Assembly: GCA_020425605.1 (NCBI GenBank)
Contig: JAGQRH010000003.1
Location: forward strand, 75,011-139,010
DNA: 64,000 nt
From: Planctomycetota bacterium
GTDB taxonomy: Bacteria; Planctomycetota; UBA8742; UBA2392
Direction of reading: 5' to 3'
Position 1 is the first letter of the stretch. Every line of letters starts with the position of its first letter. Under the pieces are notes generated by a model. It had not been told where the DNA came from. It was given only the letters and a program-made list of their open reading frames with translations, and searched no databases. Below are positions 3,138-29,580 of the stretch, piece after piece. The position numbers and the translations under genes are program-made.

Positions 3138-3292
3138 GGCGGGTGAACCTCGGGGAGTGCTTTGCGAAGCTGATGGGAGGATACGCCATGACCTCACCAC
3201 TCCATAGGGTATTGCGAATTCGCCATTGCCGATCAGCGGCCACATACTGACTTTGTCGCGTTTCCGCATAGGGCGCCGGATGGCAAATGGAC

Positions 3293-9898: not shown

Positions 9899-11014
9899 AT
9901 GCGCGTCATTTGTGCACCGGACAAGTTCAAGCAGTGCTGCACCGCGGGCGAAGCCGCGCAGGCGCTTGCGTCCGGGGTACTCGACGTCGCCCCGGGTGCC
10001 GAGGTCTTGCAGATCCCGGTCGCCGACGGCGGCGAAGGCACGCTCGACGCGCTCAGCGGCGAGTTTCCTGATCGACGCAATGCACGGGTGCAGGACGCGT
10101 TGGGGCGAGAAGTCGACGCGCAGTTCGCGATGCACGGCACGGTCGCGCTGATCGAGAGCGCCCAGGCCTGCGGCCTCGCACGCCTGGACGAAGCCGAATA
10201 CAACCCTGCGATCACCCACACCTTCGGCGTCGGCCAGCTGATCAAGGCCGCGCTGGATGCCGGCGCGAACGAGTTGCTGATCGGCCTCGGCGGCAGCGCA
10301 ACCAACGACGGCGGAAGCGGAATGGCCCGCGCGCTGGGGGTGAAGTTCCTCGACGACAAAGACGCTGAGATTGCCCCCACCGGCGATTCGCTGATCAAGC
10401 TCCGTAAATGCGACGTCAGCGGGCTGGACCCGCGCCTGAAGGGCGTCAAGGTTCGCGCGCTGTGCGACGTCATGGCCCCGATGCTCGGTGAGCAGGGCGC
10501 CAGCCGCACCTACGTCGTCCAGAAGGGCGGCACCACCCGCACCATGCACAAGCTGGAGGAGGGCTTGGCCATGCTGCAGTACGCGGCGGCGGCGGCCGGC
10601 CTGCGCGGCAACGGGCTTGAGCCCGGCACCGGCGCAGCGGGCGGGCTTGGCTTCGGGATCTACTCGCTGCTCGGAGGCGACTTGGAAGCGGGCGCCGACA
10701 AAGTGCTCGACCTGATCGGCTTCCGAAAGCTGTTGCAGGGCACGGACCTCGTGCTCACGGGCGAAGGCAGCTTCGATGCCCAGACCGAGCAGGGCAAGCT
10801 GATTGCGGTACTCGCCGAAGACTGCAAAGCAGCCGGCGTACCGCTGGTCGTGCTGGCCGGCGCAGTCGCCGGAGACGTGAATATCGACGGCGTCACGGCC
10901 GCATTCGGAATCAGCGCCTACGGCCAACGCCGCCAGGACAGCCTCAACGAAGGCAAAGCCAACCTCCGCAAACACGCCGCGGCTGTCACGCGTCTGCTGA
11001 AGTCCAGGCGCTGA
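9899..11014 (+). CDS. glxK: glycerate kinase
   Basis: MRVICAPDKFKQCCTAGEAAQAL...LQIPVADGGEGTLDAL is the canonical glycerate kinase family N-terminus. 371 aa. Confidence 0.9.
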   Translation: MRVICAPDKFKQCCTAGEAAQALASGVLDVAPGAEVLQIPVADGGEGTLDALSGEFPDRRNARVQDALGREVDAQFAMHGTVALIESAQACGLARLDEAEYNPAITHTFGVGQLIKAALDAGANELLIGLGGSATNDGGSGMARALGVKFLDDKDAEIAPTGDSLIKLRKCDVSGLDPRLKGVKVRALCDVMAPMLGEQGASRTYVVQKGGTTRTMHKLEEGLAMLQYAAAAAGLRGNGLEPGTGAAGGLGFGIYSLLGGDLEAGADKVLDLIGFRKLLQGTDLVLTGEGSFDAQTEQGKLIAVLAEDCKAAGVPLVVLAGAVAGDVNIDGVTAAFGISAYGQRRQDSLNEGKANLRKHAAAVTRLLKSRR

Positions 11015-12481
11015 TCAAGCGTCCGCCTCAAAATGTATGCCGCGCCGCCTGCATAGCTTCACGAACTCATTTGCCCGTGTTCGGATGCGACCGCCGGTTT
11101 CGAGCGCAATTGCATTTCGCCAATGAACCCGGCACCAGTTGGGGTCGAGCGTCACACCTTCGCCTGCGTTGACACGAAGCCGCTCACATGACGCCAGCTC
11201 CTGGCGTGCTTCCTTGACTCGTCCGCCTGCGCGCAACAGCTGCGTCTTCATCACGGAAAGCACGAAGTCGAGCCCGATCGCGTTGTGGTTCCGGACGAAG
11301 TCGTCTTCTTCGGCGCCCTTCCAGATTTGCATCGCCTTGTCGTGCTTGCCCTGCAGCGAGAGCAAATGCGCACGCGCGATCCGTTCGCCGGGGCTGGTTG
11401 GCTCATCGGACGCGATGCGGTCATGCCGCCGGAGCAGATCTTGCGGAAGCTTTGCATCGCGCGTCCACGGGCACAGGAACATGACACGTTGCAGGTTCAA
11501 CCGCGACGGCTCCAGCATGTCGGCAGCGGCGCGCAGGTCGATCGAGCCGCTGAGGTACAGCGCGTAGGCCATGCCGTAGACGCTGTTTTGCCGCGCCTCA
11601 GGCCGCAAGCCCAGCGAGAGAGCAGTAGCGAGCATGCCCATGCCCTTGCGCAACCTGCCTGCCTGAACCAGAACCCAGCCGTAGACGCCGATGCAGCGCC
11701 CATAGTTGCCGAACTCCCTCGCGCGTGGCGACAGCTTCAGCGCTGCCTCGGCAAATCGAATGGCGTCGTCCACCAGTCCTGCAGCATCCAGTGTCACCAC
11801 AACGCCGAACGCCTCGACCAGCGCCTGCTCATCGATCTCGCCGGTTTCTGAAACGGCCTGGAAAAACGCGCGACGGCGGTGCACCAGCGCGCGGTGGATG
11901 TTGCCGGCAAGGTACTCGTGCGAGCCACGCAGTCGCTCGTGACGTCGGTTGAGCACCGGGTCGGGACACAAGCGCCCCACCTGCTCAGCCGCCTTGGCCA
12001 GACGAGTTGAGCGTGGCTTATGCTGGTCGTTGATCGCCTTGCCCCAGTCATCCAGCACGCGCGCGTAGGTGGCGCGGCTTTGACGCGCAAGCTGCTCGCG
12101 CACCTGTTCGAAGCTTTCCAGCGCGTCGTTAAGATCGCGCAGATTTCGCGCGTGTTCCTTGCCCGCAAGTGCACCAAGCTTGAGCTTGCTGATGCGCCCC
12201 ATGGTCTGCACCAGCTCCGCCAGACCGGCCGCGGTCTTGCCTTCCTCGGCCGCGACGTCCGAAAGCCACGGTGCGCCCTCGCCGAAAAGGAGCCAGGCCG
12301 GGTTGACGCCGAATTCGCGGCCCACGGATGCCACAAAACTGACGGGAATGCGGTTGCCCTTCAGGTAGCGGCTGACGCTTGAGCCCGGCGTCGCCGTTCG
12401 TCGCGCGATCTCGGCCTGCGGGTAGCGAAGAGCTACTTCGTTCAAGCGCTCGCGCACTGCCGCTTCATCTGTGAGTTGCAT
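11015..12481 (-). CDS. XRE-family HTH regulator with a long helical-repeat (TPR-like) C-terminal domain
   Basis: N-terminus QAEIARRTATPGSSVSRYLKGNRIPVSFVASVGREFGVNPAWLLFGEG is a Cro/cI-type HTH. The remaining ~400 aa are Ala/Leu/Arg-rich helical repeats. Divergent from the first giant surface-protein gene. Confidence 0.8.
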   Translation of the reverse strand: MQLTDEAAVRERLNEVALRYPQAEIARRTATPGSSVSRYLKGNRIPVSFVASVGREFGVNPAWLLFGEGAPWLSDVAAEEGKTAAGLAELVQTMGRISKLKLGALAGKEHARNLRDLNDALESFEQVREQLARQSRATYARVLDDWGKAINDQHKPRSTRLAKAAEQVGRLCPDPVLNRRHERLRGSHEYLAGNIHRALVHRRRAFFQAVSETGEIDEQALVEAFGVVVTLDAAGLVDDAIRFAEAALKLSPRAREFGNYGRCIGVYGWVLVQAGRLRKGMGMLATALSLGLRPEARQNSVYGMAYALYLSGSIDLRAAADMLEPSRLNLQRVMFLCPWTRDAKLPQDLLRRHDRIASDEPTSPGERIARAHLLSLQGKHDKAMQIWKGAEEDDFVRNHNAIGLDFVLSVMKTQLLRAGGRVKEARQELASCERLRVNAGEGVTLDPNWCRVHWRNAIALETGGRIRTRANEFVKLCRRRGIHFEADA

Positions 12482-12491
12482 AGTGGGCTCC

Positions 12492-12578
12492 GTTCCCGTT
12501 CGGAAAGTCTACATGTCAACTTCCCGAATGGGAACGCTACTGGAGTTCGAGTGTTCTCAATTTGATCCTGAACGGGAT
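12492..12578. promoter_or_regulatory. candidate operator sites in the divergent regulator/surface-protein promoter
   Basis: GTTCCCGTTCGG (12492-12503) is the inverted copy (11/12) of CCGAATGGGAAC (12524-12535). A third related copy CTGAACGGGAT lies at 12568-12578. GGAGAG RBS precedes ATG 12617. Confidence 0.3.
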
Positions 12579-12616
12579 ATGGTTTCGCGTCGCTCTTACC
12601 TGCACGGAGAGAAACC

Positions 12617-15256
12617 ATGAACCTCGCAGCCAAACTGGCAGTACCCATTCTTCTATCGTTCGCGGGCGCGCTGTCCGCCCAATACACGAGGACGGAAACA
12701 ACCGCCACCTATGTCCAGAGAACCGGAACCTCGATCGCGGGACAGGAGTTGTACGTAAGTGGCATCGACGACAGCGCACTGCTGGTGCAGTTGCCGTTCG
12801 ACTTCCAGTACTTCGATCGCGTGTACCGCAGTTGCTGGATCAGCTCAAACGGGCGGGTCTGCTTCAACACCGACAACGCGACGACATTCTCTGCACCGCC
12901 GAACCTGACGCCCTCGGTCGGCAGCAACTACACCGATACGATATTTGCCATCGGCGGCGACCTCTATGCGCGCACGGAGGGCATCTACAGCACGCTTGGC
13001 GCGTACAGCGAAAGTGGGCGCGTTGTGCTGCAGTGGACGAATGTCTCCTTCTTCAGTGGCATGCGCTGCAGCTACCTGAACTTCCAGGTGCACCTGCTGT
13101 CCAACGGCAACGTCGAAATGCACTACGGGCCTGAGAACGTCATTCCCAACTATTCACACAACATCCCCTTCGCCTCCGGCATGGTCAACTTTGACGGCTC
13201 AGCCTCCGTGTTCGGATTCGGCAACACAACGTCACAGCAGACCACGCGTCCCGTCGCCAATACTCTGGTGACGCTGGCACTCACAGCATCGCCCGCAAAC
13301 ACGGTGACGATTAACCAGAACCCGATGCCGCTGCGCCGCTTTGTGCCGGCACCGGCTACGGACTTGCCGGTGCTTTCATTCAAGCTGGTCCGCTCGGGCA
13401 TGGGCGCAATGGTGACAGAGCTGGACTTCAACCACGCGGACTTCGCCGGTGACGGCAATCCGGTCACGCTCAAACTGGTCAAGGACACGGGCACCATCGG
13501 AAGCTACGACGGCGAGGCAGCCATCGGCGCGCTGGCGACCATGGGCGGCAACACCAGCGTCACGGGCCTCACGGAGGACCTGACCAGTGTCGCGTCCGCG
13601 AACTACCTGCTGGTCGCCAGCTACGCCACGCTGTCAGTGGTCTCACAGTCGGGCTTCTACTGCGGCAGCGGGATGCCTGCCTCGATGACCGGCAGCGCGA
13701 TTTCCAATCGGATCGCCCTCGCGCCCCAGGGCATGGCGTGGTTTGCGGGCTCGATTCCGAATTCGATCCGCCCGGCGGCCACAGTTGGATCGACGCACCA
13801 GCGATTGATGACCTTTTCGATCCAGCAGGACGCGGACTCACCTTCGTACAGCCTGACGCAGATGAGCTTTGGACTGACACTCACGGGCGTGACCCTGGCC
13901 GACATAGACCAGCTGCAACTCTGGCGTGATGCCGGCACGCCCGGCGAATGGGATGCGTCAGACACACTCATTAGCACGGTCACCTCGGTCTCGACCACAA
14001 ACCTCTTCACCGGATTGTCCGAAGCCACAACGAAATCCGGCACCGCGTACATTGTAACCGCTGACATCAGCGCATCGCTTGCGGCCTCGGGAACCTTGAA
14101 ACTGACCTACAACCTCCCGTCATCGGGTACGCCGTTCCCCACCGGCTCCTCCACGGGCGAGCTTTTGCAGGTGGCCGGCCCCGGCTCAACGCTGATCGTG
14201 CGTGACGTGCCGGACTACGCTCTGACCAGCGTGACGGCGGCGGTTTCCGAAATCGGCGTCCACGCCAATGTCTTCGAACTCATTGCCGGCTCGGGCAGCG
14301 GTACGGTCACCCAAATCGACTTCTCCGAAACTCAGAGCAGCAACTCGCAGGTAACGGACGCCCGCCTCTATCAGGACACAGGCACGAGCCCGGGGCGGTA
14401 CGACACGGGCGACACCCCCATCCCGGCCACGGTCACGCTTGGCGCAGCCACGATCAGCATGAGCCTCACCACCCCGCTCACCGTTACTGGCGTGGCAAAG
14501 CGATTCGTGCTGGTTGTCGACATCGCCTCGAACGCCAGCAACGACATGCGCTTTGACGTCGGCGGTATGTCCATCACGTCCAATTTCGTCAACCAGACTG
14601 GCGCATCCACCGGCACCTTTCTGGACCAGCGCGCCGGCAGCGCAAACGGCGTGAACCTGTCCGCAGCATTGCTGACCACCAGCGCGAACATCTACACCAA
14701 CAAGCTCGTGATTCTTGGTCAGGCGCGCTGCCAGGCGCGTGGCACGGGCGGCGCAGCGCCGACACTCCATTTCGTGCTGGGCGACAACCCGTGCGGGCGC
14801 GGCGCAAACTGCCGCATCTTTTTTCAAGTCTGGCTCGAGGGGGCGGGCCCGCTTGGCGCGCTCGATGCGACCGACGTTGAATGCTACGGCTTTTACTCAA
14901 CGAACGGCTCCGTCCAGTTTCAGCTTGGAAGCACGCCGTTCGTCCCGGCCGGCGTAACCCGCGATTTTCTCATCGTCGCACGCCACATCGCGGCGCCGGG
15001 CGTGGATATTGGAGGCCCGTTCGACGTGCACTTCGGCGGATACAGTGCCGGCACGGACACGGCATGGTTTCCGGCCGGTACGCCGGCGCCTGCCGCTGCA
15101 ACGCTGATCAACACGCGCAAGTCCTCCAACCCGGGCGGGGGCGGCGGATCTGACGGTGGCTGCACCACCGGCCAGGACGGAAAGAACTGGCTGGCGTGGC
15201 TCGCCGTGCTAGCGGCAGCGGCGGCCGTCACACGCCTGCGTCGCGCCAGGTCGTAA
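12617..15256 (+). CDS. large secreted surface protein: NIDO-like N-domain, repeated ~115-aa modules, Cys-type C-terminal sorting signal
   Basis: Signal peptide MNLAAKLAVPILLSFAGALSA|QYT. LPFDFQYFDRVYRSCWISSNGRVCF matches the NIDO-type F-x-F-x-[FY]-[FG]-x-x-Y-x-x-x-x-[IV]-S-x-NG motif. Three related modules follow (..VTELDF..LKLVKDTGT..; ..LTQMSF..LQLWRDAGT..; ..VTQIDF..ARLYQDTGT..). Tail GGGGGSDGGCTTGQDGKNWLAWLAVLAAAAAVTRLRRARS. Confidence 0.9.
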   Translation: MNLAAKLAVPILLSFAGALSAQYTRTETTATYVQRTGTSIAGQELYVSGIDDSALLVQLPFDFQYFDRVYRSCWISSNGRVCFNTDNATTFSAPPNLTPSVGSNYTDTIFAIGGDLYARTEGIYSTLGAYSESGRVVLQWTNVSFFSGMRCSYLNFQVHLLSNGNVEMHYGPENVIPNYSHNIPFASGMVNFDGSASVFGFGNTTSQQTTRPVANTLVTLALTASPANTVTINQNPMPLRRFVPAPATDLPVLSFKLVRSGMGAMVTELDFNHADFAGDGNPVTLKLVKDTGTIGSYDGEAAIGALATMGGNTSVTGLTEDLTSVASANYLLVASYATLSVVSQSGFYCGSGMPASMTGSAISNRIALAPQGMAWFAGSIPNSIRPAATVGSTHQRLMTFSIQQDADSPSYSLTQMSFGLTLTGVTLADIDQLQLWRDAGTPGEWDASDTLISTVTSVSTTNLFTGLSEATTKSGTAYIVTADISASLAASGTLKLTYNLPSSGTPFPTGSSTGELLQVAGPGSTLIVRDVPDYALTSVTAAVSEIGVHANVFELIAGSGSGTVTQIDFSETQSSNSQVTDARLYQDTGTSPGRYDTGDTPIPATVTLGAATISMSLTTPLTVTGVAKRFVLVVDIASNASNDMRFDVGGMSITSNFVNQTGASTGTFLDQRAGSANGVNLSAALLTTSANIYTNKLVILGQARCQARGTGGAAPTLHFVLGDNPCGRGANCRIFFQVWLEGAGPLGALDATDVECYGFYSTNGSVQFQLGSTPFVPAGVTRDFLIVARHIAAPGVDIGGPFDVHFGGYSAGTDTAWFPAGTPAPAAATLINTRKSSNPGGGGGSDGGCTTGQDGKNWLAWLAVLAAAAAVTRLRRARS

Positions 15257-15275
15257 CTCCAGGTGACGCAGGAAA

Positions 15276-15299
15276 GGGGGCGCGGTGCAGCGCGCCCCC
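15276..15299 (+). terminator. hairpin terminator
   Basis: Stem GGGGGCGCG / CGCGCCCCC (9 bp, 6-nt loop) 20 nt after the stop, followed by TTGTTCATTT. Confidence 0.65.
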
Positions 15300-15420
15300 T
15301 TGTTCATTTGAGAAACGCTCCGGACTATCTCGCGACGGATTGCACCTTTTGCATTCCTGATCCCCAGCGGCGCGGTTATGGTATTGGCACCCTTAGCCAG
15401 CCCCTGACTTCGGAGTTGCC

Positions 15421-18400
15421 ATGCGATCGCTGATACTTGTTGCGATAACGTTAAGTCTGTTGTCCGGCGTTATTTCCGCGCAATACACCGCAACTCTTCA
15501 AGGCGGTACCAGCGAGTACACCAACCGCGACATCAGCGGCCCGCTGAACAACCGTTACCGCGAGTTGAACAGCTACTTCGTTGAGAACGTGCCGATTGGT
15601 TTTGAATTCACATACTTCGGTGAACGGTACACACACGTTCAGGTCTGCAGCCGCGGCTTCATTGGCTTTGACCCCCGGAGTGCCTACCCGGCCAACCCCT
15701 ACCCGCCAAGCAGCAGTGGGACGCCCCTGCCGGACTCGCCCGCGCCGAACAATGCGATTTTCGTGGCGTGGTCGGGCAACTATCCATCCAGCAATAACAC
15801 GAAGGGGCTGTTTTGGGAAACGCTCGGCACAGCGGGTAGTCGTGAGTTCCGGGTTCAGTATCGTTTCTGGGGTTTCAGCGCGATCGTCAGCCTGTTCGAA
15901 GGCAGCAACGTAATTCAGGTCGTGTTTGGGCCCTGGTATTCGGTGTATGCTGGCTACTGCGGGATAGAGAACAAGGGGGGCACGATCGGGATCGCTTCCC
16001 CTAGCGGTTGGTACAACTTCCCGCTGCCGACGGCGGGAACGCTGATCACCTACACACCTTCCAGCGCCCCGGAAGTGGACCTTGCCAACCCGGACGACGC
16101 GGCTGTCAGCGACGGCGCAACTGACACTGTTTTCCTCGGGATCCCTGGTACTCCATTCGCGCGAACCTACACAATCCGAAACCTTGGCGACCAGAACATC
16201 AACCTCAGCGGCTCGCCCATCGTCAACGTGGTTGCCCAGAACAATTGCACGGCATCTGTCACTGCTCAGCCCGGGCTCACAACCATCACACCGGGCGGGT
16301 CGACCACTTTCACGGTGCAGGTAACCCCCTCCGGCTCGGGGGCGTTCAGCACAGACCTGTTGTTCCAATGCAATGACGCCAACGAGAACGTCTACAACTT
16401 CAGCATCGGCGGCACGGCGGTAACCGGCGGCGCCCCGGAAATCGAATTGCAAGACCCCAACGGCTTTGGAATCTCGAACGCGGGCAGCTATCGCCACTAT
16501 CCGTTCCAGAGCGACCTGGTGAACTTCGCTCTCACATTCACCGTTCGCAATTCGGGCGGTGCTGCACTCACGTTCAGCGGATCTCCGGTGGTAACGACTG
16601 CCTCGCCCGCTGGCTGCACTGCCACCGTTACGACCGACCTGCCGGCTTCGCTTGCACCGGGGTCAAGCACGACCTTCGTAATCACAATCGATTCCGACAC
16701 AACAAGCACTCAGTATGACTTCTCGGTTTCGTTCAATTGCAACGATGCGGATGAAGCAAGCTATCAGTTCCAGGTGAATGGTTGGGCATATGATAACGGT
16801 CAGCCGTACGTTGTGCGTGCTGGCAGGCTCGTTGACGACAATCAGCTGGACGACGTCGTGACAGGAACAGTCTCGGGTATCCCGACCATCCTGACCTATC
16901 AAGTCTGGAATTCAGGATACGCGAACGTGAACTTGCAAGGTGGGCCTACAGTCAACATCAGCGGGGCTCAAAACTGCGTTGCCACAGTCACGATGTCGCC
17001 TGCTTCGCCGGTGAGCGGACAATCCAGCACCAGCTTCAGCATCTCTGTCACGCCCACAACGCCCGGTGCCTGGAGTTTTGATGTCGACTTCGACTATGAC
17101 TACGTTTCATCGCCGGCCAGCTACGACTTCACTGTCAGCGGCACGGCCGACCCGCAAGCTCCGGAGATGGACCTGCAACGCCCGGCCGCCACGTCGATCC
17201 AGGACGGAGGCATTGATGCAACGACCGGAAGCGTGGCCGGCTCACCAATGGTCCTTACCTACACCATTGAAAACACCGGCACCGCGACGCTGGTGCTTCC
17301 GGGCACGCCGCGTGTGGCGATCGCCAACCAGAACAACTGCGCGGCCTCGGCTACCTCGCAGCCGCCAATGAACATCGGTGCGGGCGTCCAAACCACATTC
17401 GTCGTCTCTGTAACGCCGTCGACGTCGGCGTTCTGGAGCTTCCAGTTCAGCATCGACAACAACGATGCCAACGAGAACCCATACAACATCACGGTCACCG
17501 GCACGGCAGGCTCTTCCGCCGGCCCTGAGATCGAAGTCGAGGGTCCCGGTCCAGTGTCGATCAGCTCAGGGGGCGGCTTCAATGCCGGTTCCGCGCCTAT
17601 CAGTACGCCCACAAACGTCGTGTTTACGGTACGGAACATCGGCTCGGCGACGCTGAACCTGACCGGTACGCCGGCCGTGCAGGTTACGGGCGCCAACAAC
17701 TGTAGCGCAAACGTGACGGTCAACCCCGCAACGGCAGTCACGCCGTCCGGCAACACGACATTCACCGTTCAATATACCGTCACATCCGCCGCGGCATTTG
17801 ATTTCTCGCTCAGCATTGCCAACGACGACAGCAACGAAAACCCGTACACGTTCACCGTGAATGGAACCGGCACCGCGGCACCGGAGCCGGAGATGGACGT
17901 CGAGGACAGCGTCCCCCAACCTATCGCAGTCGGCGCGAACTACTCGGTGGGCAGCATTCCCGCAGGCAGCCCAAGCATGGTAAGCCTGACCATCCGCAAC
18001 ACCGGCAGCGCCACCCTGACCCTGAGCGGCACGCCCGCCGTACAGCTTTCGGGCCAAAGCAACGTGACGGCATCCGTCACCACCCAGCCCTCTTCCAGCA
18101 TCGGCGCGGGCGCGAACTCGACGTTTACTGTGAGTGTCAACCCGAACGCATTCGGCGCGTTCAGCTTTGGCGTGAGCATTGCCAACAACGATTCGACGGA
18201 AAACCCGTACACGTTTACGGTCGTCGGGACCGGGCTGTCACCGGAGATCGCCGTCGAGGACAGTGGCAGCAACCCTGTGGCGGACAGCGGCGGCTTCCTT
18301 GCCGGAAACGTACCTGTCGGCGGCGACACCGACTTCGTGTTTTCGGTGTTCAACACGGGCAACGTCGACCTCACTCTCTCCGGTACACCTGTAGTGCAGA

Positions 18401-20868
18401 TCCAGTCAGCCAGCAACGTGAGCGCGGTACTGTTCGCCGCGCCGTCAAACCCGGTTGCTCCGGCCGGCTCGACAAACTTCACGCTGCGCGTGAACCCGGT
18501 CGCAGCCGGCGCATTCAGCTTTGACGTCGTCATCGCCAACAACGATATCGACGAAAGCCCTTACAACTTCTCGTTCAGCGGGACCGGCACGGAGCCGGAG
18601 ATGGATGTAGACGACCCGACCGCGGCGTCGCTTGCCAGTGGCAGCACATATGCAGCCGGCAACGTGACGCTCGGGTCTCCGGCCAATCTGACGTTCTCCA
18701 TCCACAACAATGGCGCGGCAAATCTCAACCTGACCGGCACGCCCGCGGTACAGATCTCTGCCCTGGCCAACGTCAGCGCAAACGTCACCCTGGCGCCGAC
18801 CGTCTCGATCATCCCGACCTCGCAGACGACCTTCACCATCCAGGTCTCACCGGCCGCAGGCGGCGCGTTCAGCTTTGACGTGAGCATCGACAACAACGAC
18901 GCCAACGAGAACCCATACACCTTCAGCGTTACCGGCACCGGTGTTCCGCCGGCAACCGCAGAAATGGAGTTGCAGAGGATCGGTGGCTCAGCTGTGGCCG
19001 ACGGCGGCGTCGACAACCTGGGCAACGTGACAACGCTTTCGGCAAACCCGATTGTGTGGCAGATCGACAACGTCGGCACCCTCGCGCTGGCGCTGAACGG
19101 CACGCCGCAGGTTCAGATTTCGTCGGCTACGAACGTCAGCGCGGTCGTCTCGGCGAACCCGTCCGCAGGAGTCGCGCCGGGCGGCAACACGACGTTTACG
19201 ATCAGCGTGCAACCGACGGCGCCCGGCGCGTTCAGCTTCTCGGTCTCGATCCCGAACAATGACCCGAACGAGAACCCATACGGCTTCACGGTCAGCGGCA
19301 CGGGCACCGCGCCGGAGATTCAGATCGAACGCACGGGCGTGATCCTGAGCGGCGCGATTGACGCCATCGGCTCGTTCGCTGTCGGCGCAACCAGCAGCCT
19401 TACTTGGACAATCCGCAACCTCGGCAGCGAAGACCTGCAGTTGACTTCACCCACATCGGTCACGATCAGTGGGCAGGTAAACTGCACGGCGTCCGTCAGT
19501 TCCATTCCCGCAGGGACCATCACGGCCGGCTCCACGACTACGTTTGTCGTTCAGTTCCAGCCGCCGGCATCCGGCGGGTTCAATTTCGTCATCAATGTCG
19601 GCAGCAACGACGCTGATGAGCCGGTCTACACGATCAACGTGCAGGGAACGGCAACCAGTCTTATCCCCCAATTCCAGTTGCGCGAGGTATTCACCGGAAC
19701 ACAGATCTCCAACACCGGCGGGTACAACATAGGCAACCTGCAGGCAGGCCACAGTCGCGACACGTTCCTGAGAATCACCAACGCCGGCTCGGCCGTTCTG
19801 CTGCTTACCGGCACGCCGCAGGTACTGCCGGGAACGACAACCGGCTGCAGCATGAGCATTCTCAGCCAGCCATCCAGCGCTGTCATCTGGCCGGGTGCCA
19901 GTGACAACTTCGTGGTGCGGATCACCGCGTTGAGCGGCGCAGGATTCAACGCTGCACTGCAGATCCCAACCAATGACGGGGCGGTCGGCACGTTCACGTT
20001 CAACTTGCTCGGCACCGGGCTGGCACCGGAGATCGACCTGCAACGCCCGCTCGGCGCATCCATCCCATCCGGCACGAACAGCGCCGTCGGAAACGTTCCC
20101 GTCGGGAAGTCTGTTCGCCTTCAATGGGCGATCGCCAACACCGCGACGGGGGACCTGCATCTGACCGCGCCTGCTTCTATCAACGGCACGCCGACGAACT
20201 GTGCGGCCGTGCTTCATCAGCCGCTCTCGACAACGATCCCCGCAGGTGGTGTCGGAGTACTGTCCGTCGACGTAATCGCGTTCGCCGCCGGTGCGTTCAG
20301 TGTGCCGGTAATGGTCGAGAGCGACGACGCCAACGAAGCATCATACACGTTCACGATTACAGGCACGGCCACGGCACTGACTCCAGTACTCTTCAGCCAC
20401 CTGAAAGTTGACTTTGGGAACGTGCCGGTAAACACCGTGACGCGACGAAGGGTCGCCGTAACTAACCAAGGCACGCAGGCGGTTTCGATCAGCACGATCT
20501 CACTCTCGGCGCCGTCCGGAGGCTACGCCTACGTCAGTTCGAATCCCGTCGGTGTCGTCCCATCGTTGCCGGCCGCTGGAGTTGCAATCGTGCCGGGCGA
20601 CACGATCGAATTGCTGTTCGACTTTGCCGCCGGATCACTGCCGGGCATAACAAAGAATGCCACGCTGACCTTCACGTCCAACAGCGGCGGAACGGCCGGT
20701 ACGCAGACGATTGTGCTGCTCACGGCACAATCCGTCTCGCGGCCGGACGTTGGCGAGAACAAAGACGAGAACTGCAGCACCAGCGAAAGCCCCGGCATTA
20801 CGTGGCTCGCGCTCTTGGCGGCGCTCGCGGCACTGGCAACGGCTTCCGCGATGCGCCGGCGCGCATGA
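15421..20868 (+). CDS. giant secreted surface protein: NIDO-like N-domain, 13 tandem Ig-like (choice-of-anchor-D / ASH-like) repeats, Cys-type C-terminal sorting signal
   Basis: Signal MRSLILVAITLSLLSGVISA|QYT. VPIGFEFTYFGERYTHVQVCSRGFIGF. Repeats start with [AEGS]PE[IM][DE][LV] and end with NDxxENPY-F-V-GTG. Tail NKDENCSTSESPGITWLALLAALAALATASAMRRRA. GGAG RBS. Confidence 0.92.
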   Translation: MRSLILVAITLSLLSGVISAQYTATLQGGTSEYTNRDISGPLNNRYRELNSYFVENVPIGFEFTYFGERYTHVQVCSRGFIGFDPRSAYPANPYPPSSSGTPLPDSPAPNNAIFVAWSGNYPSSNNTKGLFWETLGTAGSREFRVQYRFWGFSAIVSLFEGSNVIQVVFGPWYSVYAGYCGIENKGGTIGIASPSGWYNFPLPTAGTLITYTPSSAPEVDLANPDDAAVSDGATDTVFLGIPGTPFARTYTIRNLGDQNINLSGSPIVNVVAQNNCTASVTAQPGLTTITPGGSTTFTVQVTPSGSGAFSTDLLFQCNDANENVYNFSIGGTAVTGGAPEIELQDPNGFGISNAGSYRHYPFQSDLVNFALTFTVRNSGGAALTFSGSPVVTTASPAGCTATVTTDLPASLAPGSSTTFVITIDSDTTSTQYDFSVSFNCNDADEASYQFQVNGWAYDNGQPYVVRAGRLVDDNQLDDVVTGTVSGIPTILTYQVWNSGYANVNLQGGPTVNISGAQNCVATVTMSPASPVSGQSSTSFSISVTPTTPGAWSFDVDFDYDYVSSPASYDFTVSGTADPQAPEMDLQRPAATSIQDGGIDATTGSVAGSPMVLTYTIENTGTATLVLPGTPRVAIANQNNCAASATSQPPMNIGAGVQTTFVVSVTPSTSAFWSFQFSIDNNDANENPYNITVTGTAGSSAGPEIEVEGPGPVSISSGGGFNAGSAPISTPTNVVFTVRNIGSATLNLTGTPAVQVTGANNCSANVTVNPATAVTPSGNTTFTVQYTVTSAAAFDFSLSIANDDSNENPYTFTVNGTGTAAPEPEMDVEDSVPQPIAVGANYSVGSIPAGSPSMVSLTIRNTGSATLTLSGTPAVQLSGQSNVTASVTTQPSSSIGAGANSTFTVSVNPNAFGAFSFGVSIANNDSTENPYTFTVVGTGLSPEIAVEDSGSNPVADSGGFLAGNVPVGGDTDFVFSVFNTGNVDLTLSGTPVVQIQSASNVSAVLFAAPSNPVAPAGSTNFTLRVNPVAAGAFSFDVVIANNDIDESPYNFSFSGTGTEPEMDVDDPTAASLASGSTYAAGNVTLGSPANLTFSIHNNGAANLNLTGTPAVQISALANVSANVTLAPTVSIIPTSQTTFTIQVSPAAGGAFSFDVSIDNNDANENPYTFSVTGTGVPPATAEMELQRIGGSAVADGGVDNLGNVTTLSANPIVWQIDNVGTLALALNGTPQVQISSATNVSAVVSANPSAGVAPGGNTTFTISVQPTAPGAFSFSVSIPNNDPNENPYGFTVSGTGTAPEIQIERTGVILSGAIDAIGSFAVGATSSLTWTIRNLGSEDLQLTSPTSVTISGQVNCTASVSSIPAGTITAGSTTTFVVQFQPPASGGFNFVINVGSNDADEPVYTINVQGTATSLIPQFQLREVFTGTQISNTGGYNIGNLQAGHSRDTFLRITNAGSAVLLLTGTPQVLPGTTTGCSMSILSQPSSAVIWPGASDNFVVRITALSGAGFNAALQIPTNDGAVGTFTFNLLGTGLAPEIDLQRPLGASIPSGTNSAVGNVPVGKSVRLQWAIANTATGDLHLTAPASINGTPTNCAAVLHQPLSTTIPAGGVGVLSVDVIAFAAGAFSVPVMVESDDANEASYTFTITGTATALTPVLFSHLKVDFGNVPVNTVTRRRVAVTNQGTQAVSISTISLSAPSGGYAYVSSNPVGVVPSLPAAGVAIVPGDTIELLFDFAAGSLPGITKNATLTFTSNSGGTAGTQTIVLLTAQSVSRPDVGENKDENCSTSESPGITWLALLAALAALATASAMRRRA
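16066..20730 (+). repeat. 13 tandem in-frame domain repeats (~105-120 aa each) inside the giant gene
   Basis: Repeat boundaries in the translation: APEVDL, APEIEL, QPYVVR, APEMDL, GPEIEV, EPEMDV, SPEIAV, EPEMDV, TAEMEL, APEIQI, IPQFQL, APEIDL, TPVLFSHLKVDFG. Conserved core [TS]-[LV]-x-N-x-G-x-x-x-L-x-L-[ST]-G-[TS]-P and ..F-S-[FV]-x-[IV]-x-N-N-D-x-x-E-N-P-Y. There is DNA-level similarity between units (for example AACGAGAACCCATAC at about 17470, 18905 and 19270). Confidence 0.85.
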
Positions 20869-20908
20869 GCCCGCTGTCGCTTTCGCCTGATTGCAGGATA
20901 ATGCCGGC

Positions 20909-21106
20909 ATGCATGGACTGATCGTGGGTGCGATCCTCGGTGTGGCGTTCATGGGATTCATGGGCGCGTACCGCAGCGTTCGAACATGGAAGGCCACCAA
21001 GCGCCGTCCGCCGGTCTGGGTGCTTTGCATCCAGGTGGGCCTGCAGGCGGCGTTGGGACTGGTGTCGCTCACTTACGCCATCTACTTCCTGGTTGCGGGT
21101 GGTTGA
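20909..21106 (+). CDS. small two-TM membrane protein, hypothetical
   Basis: In frame with track ORF 20891..21106 (TTG start); first ATG at 20909. MHGLIVGAILGVAFMGFMGAY..(basic loop KATKRRPP)..VWVLCIQVGLQAALGLVSLTYAIYFLVAGG. Lies between two giant surface-protein genes. Confidence 0.4.
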   Translation: MHGLIVGAILGVAFMGFMGAYRSVRTWKATKRRPPVWVLCIQVGLQAALGLVSLTYAIYFLVAGG

Positions 21107-21202
21107 CGATGCCCCTCGCAGCCGGGATCGCCCGCACTTGTTTGCCTATCGCCTTGTAAACAGGTAGAAAGCTTGGAACTAACCACTCATTGGGAGAGTA
21201 GC

Positions 21203-23959
21203 ATGCGCGTTTACGCTGCCAGCATCATGTCTGTGCTAATGGTCGGGGCCGCACTTTGCGGCACGGTCCAGGCACAGTCCTATGCCCGGACGGAGACCAC
21301 AGGAACGTACAACGAACTTTCCGGTACTGGGTCACCCAAGGCAATCTGGACGGATGACAGCTACGACGACGGCAGCAGATTCGTGCCATTGCCATGGGAC
21401 TTTCCGTACTTCGACCGCACGTACAAAGCGTGCTGGATGAACACCAACGGACGCGTTCAGTTTTACGACTATGAGCCGGATGACTACGACATCTCCGACC
21501 TTACTCCGACGGTGACACAGCCGGACGTCACCGAAACGATCAGCGTGTTCGCAGGCGATATCACGGGGCACACCACCCGCACACGCGACGGCGCCTACAC
21601 TGTTCACTACCTGTCAGACCGTGTCGTCTTGCAGTGGCGTGACGTGACAATGTACGATTCAGACGAGTTCGGCACGCGCCGCAACTTCCAGTGCCAGATT
21701 TTCCCGAGTGGCGAAATCCGCCTCATCATGGGGCCGAGCAGCTTTGTGATCGTCAACAACCCGGCGGACTACGTCAGTGGCATCGTCAACTTTGATGGCA
21801 CCGAGGCCTATGCCGGGTTCGGAAACACGCTGGTCACGCAGACTACCCCACCCGCCAGCGGAACGACCGTATCACTCGTCCCCAGCGGCTACACCCAGGC
21901 TAATGGAGTGGTGCTGGGCCCTCGGTACGCTGCGGACTACACACCCGGCGTATTCTATGAAGGCGCGACGGATGTCGTTGTGGGACAGTTCTGCCTGCAG
22001 GCCAATGGTACCGGCGGGACAGTCACTGACATAAACATCCAGCACGCCGGCCCCGGAACCAGCAGCGTCACTCTCAAGCTGTACGCCGACGCCGGTACGC
22101 TCGGCGTGGTCGACGGCTCAGACACGTTGCTTGGCTCCACGACCATGGCCGCCAACGACTCGACATTTTCGTCACTGACCGAAGTGCTCGACGGGACCAC
22201 GCCCCTGCGCAACTACCTGCTCGCGGTGGACCTGACCTCGATCTCTGAATCCTTCGAAACTCATTTCTACATGAACCTGGAGAACGACTCGGACATCACC
22301 ACCACTGGCGCCGCCGTCTGGGGTGGCTACTTCGACGGGGACGGCCCACCGGTCAATCCGAGGTTCCTGTTTCTGGAAGGCCCGTTTGTCGAATACAACG
22401 TATCGTCCGCGACCAATCAGTACCTCCCCATCGTTGCCGGCGGCGCTGAAGTCGCAGTTGCAAGCTTCGAGGCAAAGCTGCGAGAAACAAACGCCGCAAC
22501 TGTGGAGTTGAACAGCTTCGACGTCGACCTGAGCCTCAGCGGGCTGGTTATTGGAGACATCGCCCTGGTAAGGCTGTATCGCGACGCCGGAACCGTCGGC
22601 GTCCTCGACGGAAGCGACGTGCAGGTGGGAAGCGTGGCCAACCCCTCCAGCACCACCGTGACGTTTTCGTCTCTGGCCGAGGCAATGACCGCAGCCGGCC
22701 AGGACTACCTGGTCACCATAATGGTAGGTACTTCGTTCACAACAATCGGCGGATCGGCGGCAACCATTGCGCTGGCAGTCAGCGGAAGCGGCGAGACAAT
22801 GACCCCGGCCGCCGCTTTCTGGCAGTACTGCAATTTCGACACCGGCTCGACCTTCCAGGTATTGCCAAATGCAGCGATGCTGATGCTACGGCCAACGGTG
22901 GCCACACAATTCGCGCCACCCTCGTTCACAGGCCCCGACTACAACCTGCCGGTGCCACAAGGTGCAACGGACATTCCTGTTGTCCATTTCACATTGGAAG
23001 CGTCCAGCGGTGCACAGACGGTGACCGGGCTTGATTTCAGCGGCGACGGCACCGAAGTCAGTGCGGCCAACCTCTACCTCGACAACGGCACGACTCCGGG
23101 TCGTGTCGACGCGGGTGACACTTTTGTGGCAACAGCCTCCACGCTGAGTGCCACCAACGTTACCTTCACCGGCCTCACGGAGACGATCACCACGACCGCG
23201 TCGCGCTACCTGCTGGTGCTGGACGTATCCGGGACTGCTACTACCGGGACCGCTCTCCAGTACACCCTCGATCCGACCGGAGTGACGAGTTCGCTTACGA
23301 CGCTGGGCCAAACCTGCCTCGGCACGGTGACGCCGGTTGACATGACGGCGGATGGTGTCGACGTCACGGTAAATCTGGTCACTACAAGTGCATCGGTCTA
23401 CAACAATACCCGGGTACTCATCGCGACCTGTCAGCAGACTCCACGCGGCGCCGGCGGGGACCCGGCCTTCCTGGTCTTCCGAATCCTGAGTGCCTACGGT
23501 GGAGTCTCATCGGGATCGCTTGGCCTGGAGTGCTACCTTGAGGGCGCCGGCCCGGTCGGGCAACTCGATTCGACAGACACCCTCATGACGTTCAGCGACG
23601 GTGACCTGTACCCCGAAAACTACACCTACTGGGGCGGCGAGGACACCGGCTGGGTTACTACCACCCGAAACTTCCTGGTGTTCTTGCGCGTGAGCCCCTA
23701 CGCGTGCGACTTCAACGGCCGTTTCGAAGTCGTCTTCACCGGCCTATATGGCGGGACCGAGCCGGCCTTTGCATCCGAGCCCAACTATCGCCTGATCGGC
23801 GGCACGGCCTTGATTGGCAACAAGACCAGCAAGGGCGGCGGCGGCGGCAGTAGCGGCGGCTGCAGTACCTCCGGCGGGCCTGGAAACAATTGGCTTGCAT
23901 GGCTGGGCGCGTTGGGCGCGATGGCGGTGGTCACGCGCCTTCGCCGCTCACGCGGCTAG
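21203..23959 (+). CDS. large secreted surface protein, paralog of 12617..15256 (NIDO-like N-domain, repeated modules, Cys-type C-terminal sorting signal)
   Basis: Track ORF 21173..23959. ATG at 21203 follows GGGAGAG. Signal MRVYAASIMSVLMVGAALCGTVQA|QSY. LPWDFPYFDRTYKACWMNTNGRVQF. Modules ..VTDINIQH..LKLYADAGT.., ..LVRLYRDAGT.., ..VTGLDFSG..ANLYLDNGT... Tail GGGGGSSGGCSTSGGPGNNWLAWLGALGAMAVVTRLRRSRG. Confidence 0.9.
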   Translation: MRVYAASIMSVLMVGAALCGTVQAQSYARTETTGTYNELSGTGSPKAIWTDDSYDDGSRFVPLPWDFPYFDRTYKACWMNTNGRVQFYDYEPDDYDISDLTPTVTQPDVTETISVFAGDITGHTTRTRDGAYTVHYLSDRVVLQWRDVTMYDSDEFGTRRNFQCQIFPSGEIRLIMGPSSFVIVNNPADYVSGIVNFDGTEAYAGFGNTLVTQTTPPASGTTVSLVPSGYTQANGVVLGPRYAADYTPGVFYEGATDVVVGQFCLQANGTGGTVTDINIQHAGPGTSSVTLKLYADAGTLGVVDGSDTLLGSTTMAANDSTFSSLTEVLDGTTPLRNYLLAVDLTSISESFETHFYMNLENDSDITTTGAAVWGGYFDGDGPPVNPRFLFLEGPFVEYNVSSATNQYLPIVAGGAEVAVASFEAKLRETNAATVELNSFDVDLSLSGLVIGDIALVRLYRDAGTVGVLDGSDVQVGSVANPSSTTVTFSSLAEAMTAAGQDYLVTIMVGTSFTTIGGSAATIALAVSGSGETMTPAAAFWQYCNFDTGSTFQVLPNAAMLMLRPTVATQFAPPSFTGPDYNLPVPQGATDIPVVHFTLEASSGAQTVTGLDFSGDGTEVSAANLYLDNGTTPGRVDAGDTFVATASTLSATNVTFTGLTETITTTASRYLLVLDVSGTATTGTALQYTLDPTGVTSSLTTLGQTCLGTVTPVDMTADGVDVTVNLVTTSASVYNNTRVLIATCQQTPRGAGGDPAFLVFRILSAYGGVSSGSLGLECYLEGAGPVGQLDSTDTLMTFSDGDLYPENYTYWGGEDTGWVTTTRNFLVFLRVSPYACDFNGRFEVVFTGLYGGTEPAFASEPNYRLIGGTALIGNKTSKGGGGGSSGGCSTSGGPGNNWLAWLGALGAMAVVTRLRRSRG

Positions 23960-24077: not shown

Positions 24078-25811
24078 ATGGATATCGAACGCGAAGTCAT
24101 GGAGCAGGATGTGCTGCTCGTCGGCGCGGGGCCCGCCAACCTGGCCTGCGCGATCAAGCTCAAGCAACTCTGCGCCAAGCACAATGAGACGAGCGAGAAC
24201 AAGCTCGAGCCCGAGATCAGCATCATCGAGAAAGCGCCCGAGATCGGGCACCACCAGCTTTCCGGCGCGGTGATGGACCCGAAGGGCATCTCCGAGCTGT
24301 TCCCCAACTGGCAGGAGGAAGGCTTTCCGATCGAGTCACCCGTCGTCAACGACGCGATGATCGAGCTGTCCAGCCAGCACAAGCGCGGCGGCCCCAAGTT
24401 CGTGCCGCCCGCCATGCGCAACCACGGCAAGTTCATCGTCAGCCTGAACAAGGTCGTGAAGTGGCTGGCCGAGAAGGCCGAAGCCGCAGGCGTCAACGTG
24501 TTCCCCGGCTTTCCCGGCGCAGAGATGCTCTACGATGGCAACCGCGTCAAAGGCGTGCGTGTCAAAGACATGGGTGTCGACAAGTGGGGCGAGCCCAAAG
24601 ACGGCGAGTTCATGCCCGGCGGCGATTTAACAGCCAAGGTCACGGTGCTGGGTGAAGGCACCCGGGGAAGCTTGGCAAAACACCTGATCCCCAAGCTGAA
24701 GCTCGACAAAGACAGCAACCACCAGATGTACCAGATCGGCGTGAAAGAGGTCTGGAAGCTGGGCGAGAAAGGCAAGCAGGTCCTGAAAAAGGGCGACGTC
24801 TACCACACCATGAACTATCCGCTGCCCAACGGCGTGTTCGGCGGCGGCTGGATCTACGGCATGGACAACGACATGGTGTCGATCGGCCTGGTGGTAGGGC
24901 TGGATTACAAGGACGCCACGCTCGACCCACACCAGTTGTTCCAGCGCTGGAAGACCCACGACTTCCTGAAATCGATCCTCGGCGACGGCGAAGTGCTGCA
25001 CTACGGCGCCAAGACCATCCCCGACGGCGGATACTTCGCGATGCCGAAGCTGACGGCCGACGGCGTGATGCTGGTCGGCGACACGGCCGGCTTCCTCAAC
25101 AGCATGCGCCTCAAGGGTATCCACCTGGCGATGAAGTCGGGCATGCTCGCAGCCGAGACGATTTTCGAGTGCCTGAAGGACGGCGACTTCAGCGCCGAGC
25201 GCCTGCACAAGTACCAGAACGCATTCGAGACAAGCTGGGCCAAGGCCGAGCTGTGGGGCGTGCGCAACTTCCGCCAGGGTTTCCAGCTGAGCGAAATCTT
25301 CGGCATGGCCAACACCGCGGCCGGCCTCGTCACCGGCGGGCGCGGTTTCTTCAAGCGCCTGCACAGCGAGCCGGACCATGAGCTGTGCTCGGTCGAGACG
25401 CCCGGCACGACGCCGGCCCAGCCTGCGTCACAGTACGACGACAAGCTGACATTCGACAAGCTGAAGGACGTCTACTACTCCGGCAGCACGCACGAGGAAA
25501 ACCAGCCCTGCCACCTGCAGGTGACGAAGCCGGATATCTGCGTCACCAAGTGCACCATCGAATACGGCAACCCCTGCCAGCACTTCTGCCCGGCCAAGGT
25601 CTACGAAATGATGCCGGTAGATGAGGCCAAGGGCATGAGCCCGCAACTGAATCGCGAAGGCGAAGGCACGCCCAACGCGCAGGGTCTGGTGCTCAAGATC
25701 AACGCCAGCAACTGCGTGCACTGCAAGACCTGCGACATCAAGGACCCGTACCAGATCATCAACTGGGTGGTCCCCGAAGGCGGCGGCGGGCCTGTCTACA
25801 CGAACATGTAA
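24078..25811 (+). CDS. electron-transfer flavoprotein:ubiquinone oxidoreductase (ETF-QO)
   Basis: N-terminal FAD motif DVLLVGAGPANLACA. C-terminal 4Fe-4S/ferredoxin-like end NCVHCKTCDIKDPYQIINWVVPEGGGGPVYTNM, characteristic of ETF-QO. 577 aa. Confidence 0.92.
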   Translation: MDIEREVMEQDVLLVGAGPANLACAIKLKQLCAKHNETSENKLEPEISIIEKAPEIGHHQLSGAVMDPKGISELFPNWQEEGFPIESPVVNDAMIELSSQHKRGGPKFVPPAMRNHGKFIVSLNKVVKWLAEKAEAAGVNVFPGFPGAEMLYDGNRVKGVRVKDMGVDKWGEPKDGEFMPGGDLTAKVTVLGEGTRGSLAKHLIPKLKLDKDSNHQMYQIGVKEVWKLGEKGKQVLKKGDVYHTMNYPLPNGVFGGGWIYGMDNDMVSIGLVVGLDYKDATLDPHQLFQRWKTHDFLKSILGDGEVLHYGAKTIPDGGYFAMPKLTADGVMLVGDTAGFLNSMRLKGIHLAMKSGMLAAETIFECLKDGDFSAERLHKYQNAFETSWAKAELWGVRNFRQGFQLSEIFGMANTAAGLVTGGRGFFKRLHSEPDHELCSVETPGTTPAQPASQYDDKLTFDKLKDVYYSGSTHEENQPCHLQVTKPDICVTKCTIEYGNPCQHFCPAKVYEMMPVDEAKGMSPQLNREGEGTPNAQGLVLKINASNCVHCKTCDIKDPYQIINWVVPEGGGGPVYTNM

Positions 25812-29480: not shown

Positions 29481-29540
29481 GGTAAGCCTCCGGTTTGAGC
29501 AACACACAGACTCTAACACGCCGATTGCACAGCAAAGCCA

Positions 29541-29580
29541 AAATGCACAGTGCATTTAGTGAATTTTTGGCGAATTCACT
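29541..29580. promoter_or_regulatory. palindromes in the AT-rich divergent promoter region
   Basis: AAATGCAC-A-GTGCATTT (29541-29557) is immediately followed by AGTGAATT-N7-AATTCACT (29558-29580). A related AAAATGCATTTT lies at 29697-29708. All sit in the ~330-bp AT-rich spacer between the Kelch gene and gpmI. Confidence 0.3.

Follow-up and report, generated by a model that had tools for sequence, protein, structure and literature searches.

What are three very large secreted proteins, encoded on one strand beside a divergently transcribed regulator in a planctomycete genome, and do they form one regulated system? We addressed this question in a stretch of 64,000 nt (the window) from Planctomycetota bacterium (GCA_020425605.1, contig JAGQRH010000003.1, 75,011-139,010, forward strand), and refer to the three proteins as A, B and C (Table 1). 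A preliminary description, made from the sequence alone, had read the block as an island of three secreted proteins with a NIDO-like N-terminal domain and a common Cys-type C-terminal anchor, under the control of the adjacent regulator, and all the sequence features that it listed are present. In the explanation that fits our results best, and that we consider reasonably probable, A, B and C are adhesin-like proteins that a MYXO-CTERM-like pathway sorts to the cell surface, and the regulator controls A and itself. The parts are of known kinds (NIDO-like domain, choice-of-anchor D repeats, Cys-type C-terminal sorting signal, XRE regulator), and it still holds that the whole combination could not be matched to a described system. 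Three findings are new with respect to the literature searched: Planctomycetota carry a Cys-type signal, built around a GGC[ST]TG motif of its own; a rare family of adhesin-like proteins, specific to this clade, uses it; and genes for such cargo are repeatedly paired with one regulator family.

A Cys-type tail on unrelated proteins

The tails follow one order: a Gly-rich run, a Cys within GGC[ST]TG, 6-10 polar residues, about 17 hydrophobic residues and an Arg cluster (RxRR). The Cys is invariant in the aligned A/C-family members (25 of 25) and in the aligned tails (29 of 29). A run of 4-8 Gly stands ahead of it in most tails; B and several other carriers keep the Cys without the Gly run. Among the sorting models, MYXO-CTERM (TIGR03901) is the best for 25 of the 29 collected tails, which match it at E<=1 (best E 2e-5), and smaller numbers match the C-termini of MYXO-CTERM-anchored families and JDVT-CTERM. 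Against the TIGR03901 cutoff of 20 bits, the tails of B, C and A alone score 22.1, 19.2 and 12.0 bits, and within the full-length proteins those of B and C score 16.6 and 14.9 bits. These matches support calling the common Cys-type anchor MYXO-CTERM-like at the level of sequence.

Four proteins in the window carry such a tail: A, B, C and a Kelch beta-propeller protein, which has a long acidic Thr-rich linker, ends in AAGCVGGNAGEG-TM-RTVRKARRA (TM, transmembrane helix) and has an orthologue with the same tail in the closest related locus (L004; related loci and proteins are cited by our L and P numbers). In related metagenome-assembled genomes (MAGs), the tail is found on unrelated proteins as well, including an ELWxxDGT-repeat protein (L014), a 797-aa protein (L012), two beta-helix proteins (L015), and He_PIG and Kelch proteins (L020, L025); counted over the clade, five or more further protein architectures carry it. 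Being present across unrelated bodies, the tail therefore behaves as a general sorting signal.

To our knowledge, definitions of Cys-type C-terminal sorting signals come from Myxococcota and a few other lineages, and experimental tests from Myxococcus only. The MYXO-CTERM/myxosortase (MrtX) system of Myxococcota has the same three-part tail (Cys motif, TM helix, Arg-rich end) on several unrelated secreted cargo proteins per genome. The tails described here differ in host and in the motif (GGC[ST]TG after a Gly run versus GCGC), and their cargo is often paired with a dedicated regulator, which is unreported in the MYXO-CTERM papers (PMC11980579; 10.1101/2023.06.07.544157). In Myxococcus, cleavage by the CPBP protease MrtX depends on the Cys, and the proposed pathway consists of Cys lipidation, cleavage and display that depends on the type II secretion system (PMC11980579). 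Planctomycetes go unmentioned in the survey of MYXO-CTERM by Haft (preprint 10.1101/2023.06.07.544157), and we found no description of the Cys tail in Planctomycetota, or of its linkage to a regulator family, in the literature searched.

Heads and bodies of the three proteins

A, B and C start with typical Sec signal peptides, and the mature N-termini are nearly identical, as had been described (LSA/QYTRTETT in A, ISA/QYTATLQG in B and VQA/QSYARTETT in C, with the slash at the predicted cut before Gln; the first mature codons are at 12680, 15481 and 21275). Gln at +1 after a predicted A/Q cut is found in all 25 aligned A/C-family proteins, in B and in several unrelated Cys-tail proteins (L015, L018, L020, L025). 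It may point to N-terminal cyclisation, and the pattern resembles the pyroglutamate 'Q-rule' of Bacteroidota secreted proteins.

The head that follows, of about 200 aa, can be aligned across A, C, B and 10 homologues (13 N-domains) with conserved positions along its full length, and the motif LPFxFxYF[DG]RxY...NGRVxF is common to A, C, B and the homologues. A profile search was required to link it to NIDO, because A, C and the isolated N-domains had no domain match in direct Pfam/NCBIfam scans: Pfam NIDO (PF06119; gathering score 25 bits) has no match in full-length A, B and C at E<=0.1 or in the isolated N-domains at E<=10. Using the profile of the 13 N-domains, we were able to collect 13,335 matches at E<=0.001 (2,130 at E<=1e-10) among 1.84 billion representative proteins, most of them very large proteins carrying 3-14 copies of the domain. 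Pfam NIDO was above its cutoff in five of the eight matches scanned first, with the NIDO stretch lying within the profile-matched segment, and 26 of 37 sampled matches were NIDO-positive (best E 6e-36), NIDO being the commonest family by far. The NIDO-like label is thus supported at the superfamily level, through profiles.

The heads share the Pfam NIDO (nidogen/mucin-4/tectorin extracellular domain) motif LPFxFxFYG..Y..l.VssNG.i.F and the later W, FQ, G-P and G-I-x-N-x-x-G. Those of the A/C type differ in forming a divergent branch with a single copy, always at the very N-terminus; the generic bacterial type is usually internal, in 3-14 copies. The B head scores 9 bits against an A-family profile built without B, and up to 41 bits against multi-copy NIDO-like proteins (P0089) when searched alone. 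By these scores, it is weakly similar to the A/C type and belongs to the same superfamily by way of intermediates. A word-indexed homologue search with the N-terminal 230 residues of B returned nothing, not even B itself.

The only PDB sequence matched by the head profile is 8gl6 chain D (deposited as 'RemA'; residues 25-228, E 1.4e-10, full domain coverage). The trapped substrate in 8gl6 is RemZ, a homologue of the Flavobacterium gliding adhesin RemA, and its C-terminal domain alone is resolved (PMC10994853). RemA/RemZ of Flavobacterium johnsoniae have the homologous N-terminal domain right after the signal peptide, and A, B and C would resemble them as large proteins of the cell surface in which a stalk is combined with a sorting domain at the C-terminus. 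RemA/RemZ differ in belonging to Bacteroidota and in using the C-terminal domain (CTD) of the type IX secretion system (T9SS); Por_Secre_tail/T9SS CTD models have no match in A, B or C, and the heads are comparable by sequence only, the RemZ head being unresolved in 8gl6. The AlphaFold2 (AF2) model of the A head is all-beta (pLDDT 89.9, pTM 0.90), and Foldseek with this model found no meaningful match in the PDB (best E 0.075, TM-score at most 0.31). Through the head, an uncharacterised family is connected with the very large NIDO-like superfamily of bacteria and with the N-terminal domain of the Flavobacterium gliding adhesins. We note that two library proteins of about 4,000 aa (P0056, P0075) carry several NIDO-like copies together with classical GCGC-type MYXO-CTERM tails; therefore, the combination of head and Cys tail exists outside the clade studied here too.

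A and C are paralogs along their whole length (32% identity, E 1e-89), as the preliminary description had proposed for the outer two proteins. Iterated searches found four internally homologous modules in each, with cores of about 110-120 aa spaced by about 150 aa (240-350, 385-505, 539-651 and 694-805 in A; 252-361, 410-529, 585-694 and 730-848 in C). Every module has an acidic L-x-x-D-x-G-x-x-G-x-x-D-x-x-D loop, which may bind calcium. Pfam/NCBIfam domain scans gave no match in A, and none in C beyond a weak match in the tail. The AF2 model of full-length A, based on 25 homologues (pLDDT 84.5, pTM 0.77), consists of the all-beta head (22-222), a chain of beta-sandwiches (229-835), a disordered Gly-rich linker (838-858) and the terminal helix (858-878). 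Foldseek with this model returned Ig-like domains arranged in strings, as found in adhesins and receptors (PrgB with E 2e-14, integrin alpha legs, antigen I/II C-domains, cadherins). Because the TM-scores were low, the body of A supports a generic stalk and no specific family.

The central protein B is indeed built of Ig-like repeats, 12 clear ones of 119 aa and a degenerate 13th. They match the choice-of-anchor D model NF012200 in 12 stretches (267.3 bits; cutoff 45 bits) and PF22544 (HYDIN/VesB-like Ig; 176 bits). Such domains by definition come with alternative C-terminal anchors; B differs in combining them with a NIDO-like head and a Cys-type tail. The hidden Markov model (HMM) searches suggested in the preliminary description thus identified the repeats of B and, with TIGR03901, the tails, and its NIDO assignment holds through the profile search, not through a direct Pfam match to any of the three proteins.

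The regulator and its probable control region

The regulator has a CI-like helix-turn-helix (HTH) followed by a weakly TPR-like helical region, which places it near phage CI/Cro (XRE) repressors and HTH-TPR regulators (RNPP: PlcR, NprR); as with these, it is divergent from its presumed target, with dyads in the spacer. Searching with a profile built from four orthologues gave a match to the HTH of the phage 186 CI repressor (2fjr; E 0.006, residues 11-86) and a weak one to the 434 repressor (E about 1). Homologues of the regulator carry precomputed PF01381 (HTH_3), PF07022 (Phage_CI_repr) or PF12844 (HTH_19); the window regulator alone has no Pfam HTH_3 match. TPR models stay below threshold (TPR_14 with E 8e-4 and 20.3 bits; cutoff 23.5). 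A PDB sequence search gave no match outside the HTH. It differs from RNPP regulators in having no significant sequence match to any RNPP protein (nor to solved TPR sensors) and in that no signalling peptide gene was seen.

The family comprises 28 clusters of 347-523 aa (all but two of 483-523 aa), and those clusters named by source are labelled Planctomycetes; the window regulator shares 89% identity with its orthologue in L004. Among the 14 regulator contexts that we examined, 10 have the regulator divergently paired with a Cys-tail gene: the window, L004, both copies in L001, L026, P0163/P0002 (where the pairing is inferred), L015, L018, L020 and L025. The pair of regulator and A is duplicated in L001 and transposed in L026, where the flanks are quite different. 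The cargo is a beta-helix protein in L015, short NIDO-like and He_PIG proteins in L018 and L020, and Kelch and He_PIG in L025. Of the remaining four regulators, three face genes of envelope proteins of other kinds: in L017 and L024 a small lipoprotein with N-anchored proteins behind it, and in L023 a 670-aa He_PIG lipoprotein. The regulator in L022 has no divergent partner. The conserved link is therefore that of the regulator to Cys-tail cargo, rather than to the NIDO head or to the three genes. That one regulator family is divergently paired with quite different cargo architectures is unusual for sorting-signal proteins. A 476-aa protein (L003:12684-14114) was considered as a further divergent regulator and rejected (it has a signal peptide and no similarity).

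The spacer of 135 bp between the regulator and A contains three candidate operator dyads, TCCCGTTCGGAA (at 12494), TCCCGAATGGGA (at 12522; a perfect TTCCC-N4-GGGAA) and TCCTGAACGGGA (at 12566), the first two of which form a composite palindrome of 26 nt. The exact palindrome TCCCNNNNGGGA alone is not significant in 64 kb (0.84 expected). Allowing one mismatch, TCCCGNNCGGGA has nine matches in 64 kb; the dyads are significant because three of these near-matches are clustered inside the 135 bp and because the dyad is conserved, being kept in L004 and in the first L001 copy (L001a) and degenerate in the second (L001b). No dyad of the TTCCC-N4-GGGAA type was found upstream of B or C. The hairpin directly 3' of A is the strongest terminator-like site in the region, and A is therefore suggested to be its own transcription unit; a sigma-70 promoter scan was uninformative. 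Since the dyads are absent there and the terminator-like hairpin ends A, B and C are probably separate transcription units as far as these sequence features indicate, and for the same two reasons co-regulation of A, B and C is without support.

The divergent spacers of two distant pairs (L018 7888-8000 and L020 1837-1945) share a block of their own, CACGAAAA...CTTGCAG...CTAACGTATTTGTTACCC, which is unlike the TTCCC-N4-GGGAA dyads. To judge from such blocks, each regulator subfamily probably has its own operator. In any case, the link between regulator and cargo offers a directly testable circuit with a defined 135-bp control region. A more far-reaching idea makes the regulator family a sensor dedicated to the sorting pathway, whose state would set the transcription of each Cys-tail cargo gene; the sensor could, for example, bind the TM-plus-Arg peptide freed by tail cleavage, in the way that peptides are bound by RNPP regulators. 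In that case, Cys-CTERM sorting in Planctomycetota would be an undescribed system with cargo-specific feedback; we regard this as very unlikely.

Proposed pathway, alternatives and locus history

The cell envelope of Planctomycetota is still debated. If the tails act as MYXO-CTERM tails do in Myxococcus (PMC11980579), the C-terminal helix would hold the exported precursor in the cytoplasmic membrane, the Cys would be lipidated, a CPBP-type intramembrane protease would remove the helix, and the protein would be moved to the cell surface and anchored there by its lipidated C-terminus. The stalk would present the N-terminal head outward, at two different lengths (A/C versus B). The regulator would most likely bind the three TTCCC-N4-GGGAA-type dyads and thereby control A and itself, by repression or activation, and B and C would be transcribed independently. 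If the same logic operates in Planctomycetota, lipid-anchored surface display via myxosortase-like enzymes reaches another phylum, and GGC[ST]TG-TM-RxRR would be a sequence handle for listing planctomycete surface proteins.

Several points weigh against this explanation. Most tails score under the TIGR03901 cutoff, with the local motif GGC[ST]TG and not the GCGC type, and the MYXO-CTERM tag has been called specific to myxobacteria (PMC11980579). Neither a sorting protease (CPBP/myxosortase MrtX, MrtC, MrtP) nor a dedicated acyltransferase was found in the window or the fetched loci, which are small parts of any genome; the Pfam/NCBIfam scan for sorting enzymes covered the longest window open reading frames (ORFs) up to about position 50,000, except 3346-5973, and the ORFs scanned were housekeeping genes. 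Four of the 14 regulators are paired with something other than a Cys-tail protein, and the regulator is not beside most A-family genes outside the closest subclade. The NIDO assignment depends on intermediates, in which Pfam NIDO aligns only at about positions 1-55 of its 186. Finally, the surface location, lipidation and adhesion of A, B and C are proposed by analogy.

A motif scan for CPBP proteases (EExxxR ... HxxxN) in all window and locus ORFs yielded one candidate, L007:14123-15454, which was rejected as a shadow ORF opposite a dynamin-like gene. A secretin gene (PF00263; L015 14242-15883) lies about 6 kb from one pair of regulator and Cys-tail gene, and a homologue of Lgt (prolipoprotein diacylglyceryl transferase; L018 3298-4497) about 3.5 kb from another. 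Both functions figure in the MYXO-CTERM working model, and the proximity may be coincidental.

If no sorting enzyme is at work, which would agree with the scans above and with the low scores of most tails, the C-terminal tail could simply anchor the proteins in the membrane permanently. A, B and C would then be type I proteins of the cytoplasmic membrane facing the enlarged planctomycete periplasm, without cleavage or lipidation, and the Cys would serve in a disulfide, a metal contact or another role. A plain anchor would not need a GGC[ST]TG motif with an invariant Cys at a fixed 6-10 residues before the helix, kept across unrelated bodies and in family members down to about 25% identity; such a motif is typical of recognised sorting signals, and we consider a permanent anchor unlikely. 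The Gly run raises the thought that the tail is a GlyGly-CTERM signal cut by rhombosortase, a system reported from one planctomycete, Rhodopirellula baltica (PMC3237569). However, GlyGly-CTERM (TIGR03501) matches one of the 29 tails (E 0.033) versus 25 for MYXO-CTERM, the Cys motif and 6-10 polar residues part the Gly run from the helix, and B and several other carriers have no Gly run; we regard a GlyGly-CTERM signal as very unlikely.

The common strand, head and tail of A, B and C and the adjacent regulator would suit a co-regulated, horizontally acquired adhesion island of three genes and a regulator. The base composition of the block equals that of the remaining window, and the history of the genes points elsewhere. 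The A/C family is rare: a word-indexed search yielded 12 clusters among 5.8 billion proteins, and an exhaustive search about a dozen more, all of 875-920 aa with a single N-terminal head. Eleven related genome loci were collected, 10 from MAGs titled Planctomycetota and one titled 'uncultured bacterium'. In a neighbour-joining tree, A and C fall in separate old subfamilies, A with its L004 counterpart (91%) and P0002-P0004 (49-51%), and C with those of L011 (57%), L002_910 (51%) and L009 (50%). The C-type members are exactly those copies that adjoin the gene of ETF-ubiquinone oxidoreductase (ETF-QO) in L011, L002 and L009. Across the loci, ETF-QO is a neighbour in seven and glycerate kinase in five.

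The gene order varies between these two landmarks. It is regulator, A, B, 65-aa gene, C and ETF-QO in the window; regulator, A and ETF-QO in the closest relative, L004 (89-91% identity), without B or C at the locus; regulator-A, regulator-A', a 68-aa gene and ETF-QO in L001; glycerate kinase, a C-type gene and ETF-QO in L009; and glycerate kinase, a C-type gene, a 65-aa gene, ETF-QO and a further paralog in L002. B is in no other locus examined. The 65-aa protein with two TM helices, unrelated to the three proteins and conserved, is homologous to the 65-68 aa genes directly upstream of ETF-QO in L001 and L002; as a bystander, it records the ancestral order of the genes and shows that B and C, which it separates, sit in separate slots. 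Because the composition is uniform and the A-type and C-type genes, as ancient paralog subfamilies, have long resided at this site of the chromosome, between glycerate kinase and ETF-QO, the locus is an old residence of the A/C family and not a mobile island. With the dyads confined to the spacer upstream of A and the hairpin after A as well, an acquired and co-regulated island is quite improbable. What persists of the dedicated, regulated three-gene system of the preliminary description is the divergent pair of regulator and A, which recurs in L004, twice in L001 and in L026; the arrangement of a regulator with three genes is not conserved, and the term island does not apply in the mobile sense.

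Table 1. Features of the regulator and A-B-C block, with a further Cys-tail gene of the window (positions in the window)
Feature	Position	Strand	Length	Description
Regulator	11015-12481	-	488 aa	N-terminal CI/XRE-type HTH (about residues 10-75), then long helical TPR-like region; from the ORF list
HTH DNA-binding domain of the regulator	12257-12454	-		Residues about 10-75; ...SVSRYLKGNRIPVSFVASVGREFGVNPAWLLFGEGAPW; near-invariant among four aligned orthologues
Three candidate operator dyads	12494-12577			In the 135-bp divergent regulator-A spacer
Protein A	12617-15256	+	879 aa	Signal peptide 1-21, NIDO-like head 22-222, four beta-sandwich modules 240-805, Gly-rich linker, Cys849, TM helix 858-878, RLRRARS
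NIDO-like N-terminal head of A	12680-13282	+		Profile matches and AF2 model
Cys-type C-terminal sorting tail of A	15104-15253	+		GGGGGSDGGCTTGQDGKNWLAWLAVLAAAAAVTRLRRARS
Terminator-like hairpin	15274-15301	+		GC-rich, 11 pairs, then a T-rich tract; directly 3' of A
Protein B	15421-20868	+	1815 aa	Signal peptide 1-20, generic-type NIDO-like head 21-215, 12 choice-of-anchor D/HYDIN-VesB Ig-like repeats 216-1652 and a degenerate 13th, Cys tail ENCSTSESPGITWLALLAALAALATASAMRRRA
Small conserved two-TM protein	20909-21109	+	65 aa	Between B and C; MHGLIVGAILGV...
Protein C	21203-23959	+	918 aa	Signal peptide 1-24, NIDO-like head 25-230, four modules 252-848, Cys tail GGGGGSSGGCSTSGGPGNNWLAWLGALGAMAVVTRLRRSRG
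Kelch beta-propeller protein	27732-29555	-		Cys tail ...AAGCVGGNAGEGLSLSLLALVILGVGLRTVRKARRA; fourth window protein with such a tail

The block is flanked by the genes of glycerate kinase (9899-11014) and ETF-QO (24078-25811). The start of C listed in Table 1 is an ATG preceded by a Shine-Dalgarno-like GGGAGAG motif; an alternative TTG at 21173 would give 928 aa. Elsewhere in the window, two tandem paralogous secreted proteins of 899 aa (570-3269, minus strand) and 875 aa (3346-5973, minus strand) are encoded, and the pair is kept in L004 and L009. A 928-aa protein of L004 (840-3626), considered as a relocated C, is unrelated to C and an orthologue of this pair. The 570-3269 protein, the member of the pair that was scanned, has zero Pfam matches, and both proteins end in C-terminal tails rich in Lys, Glu and Pro.

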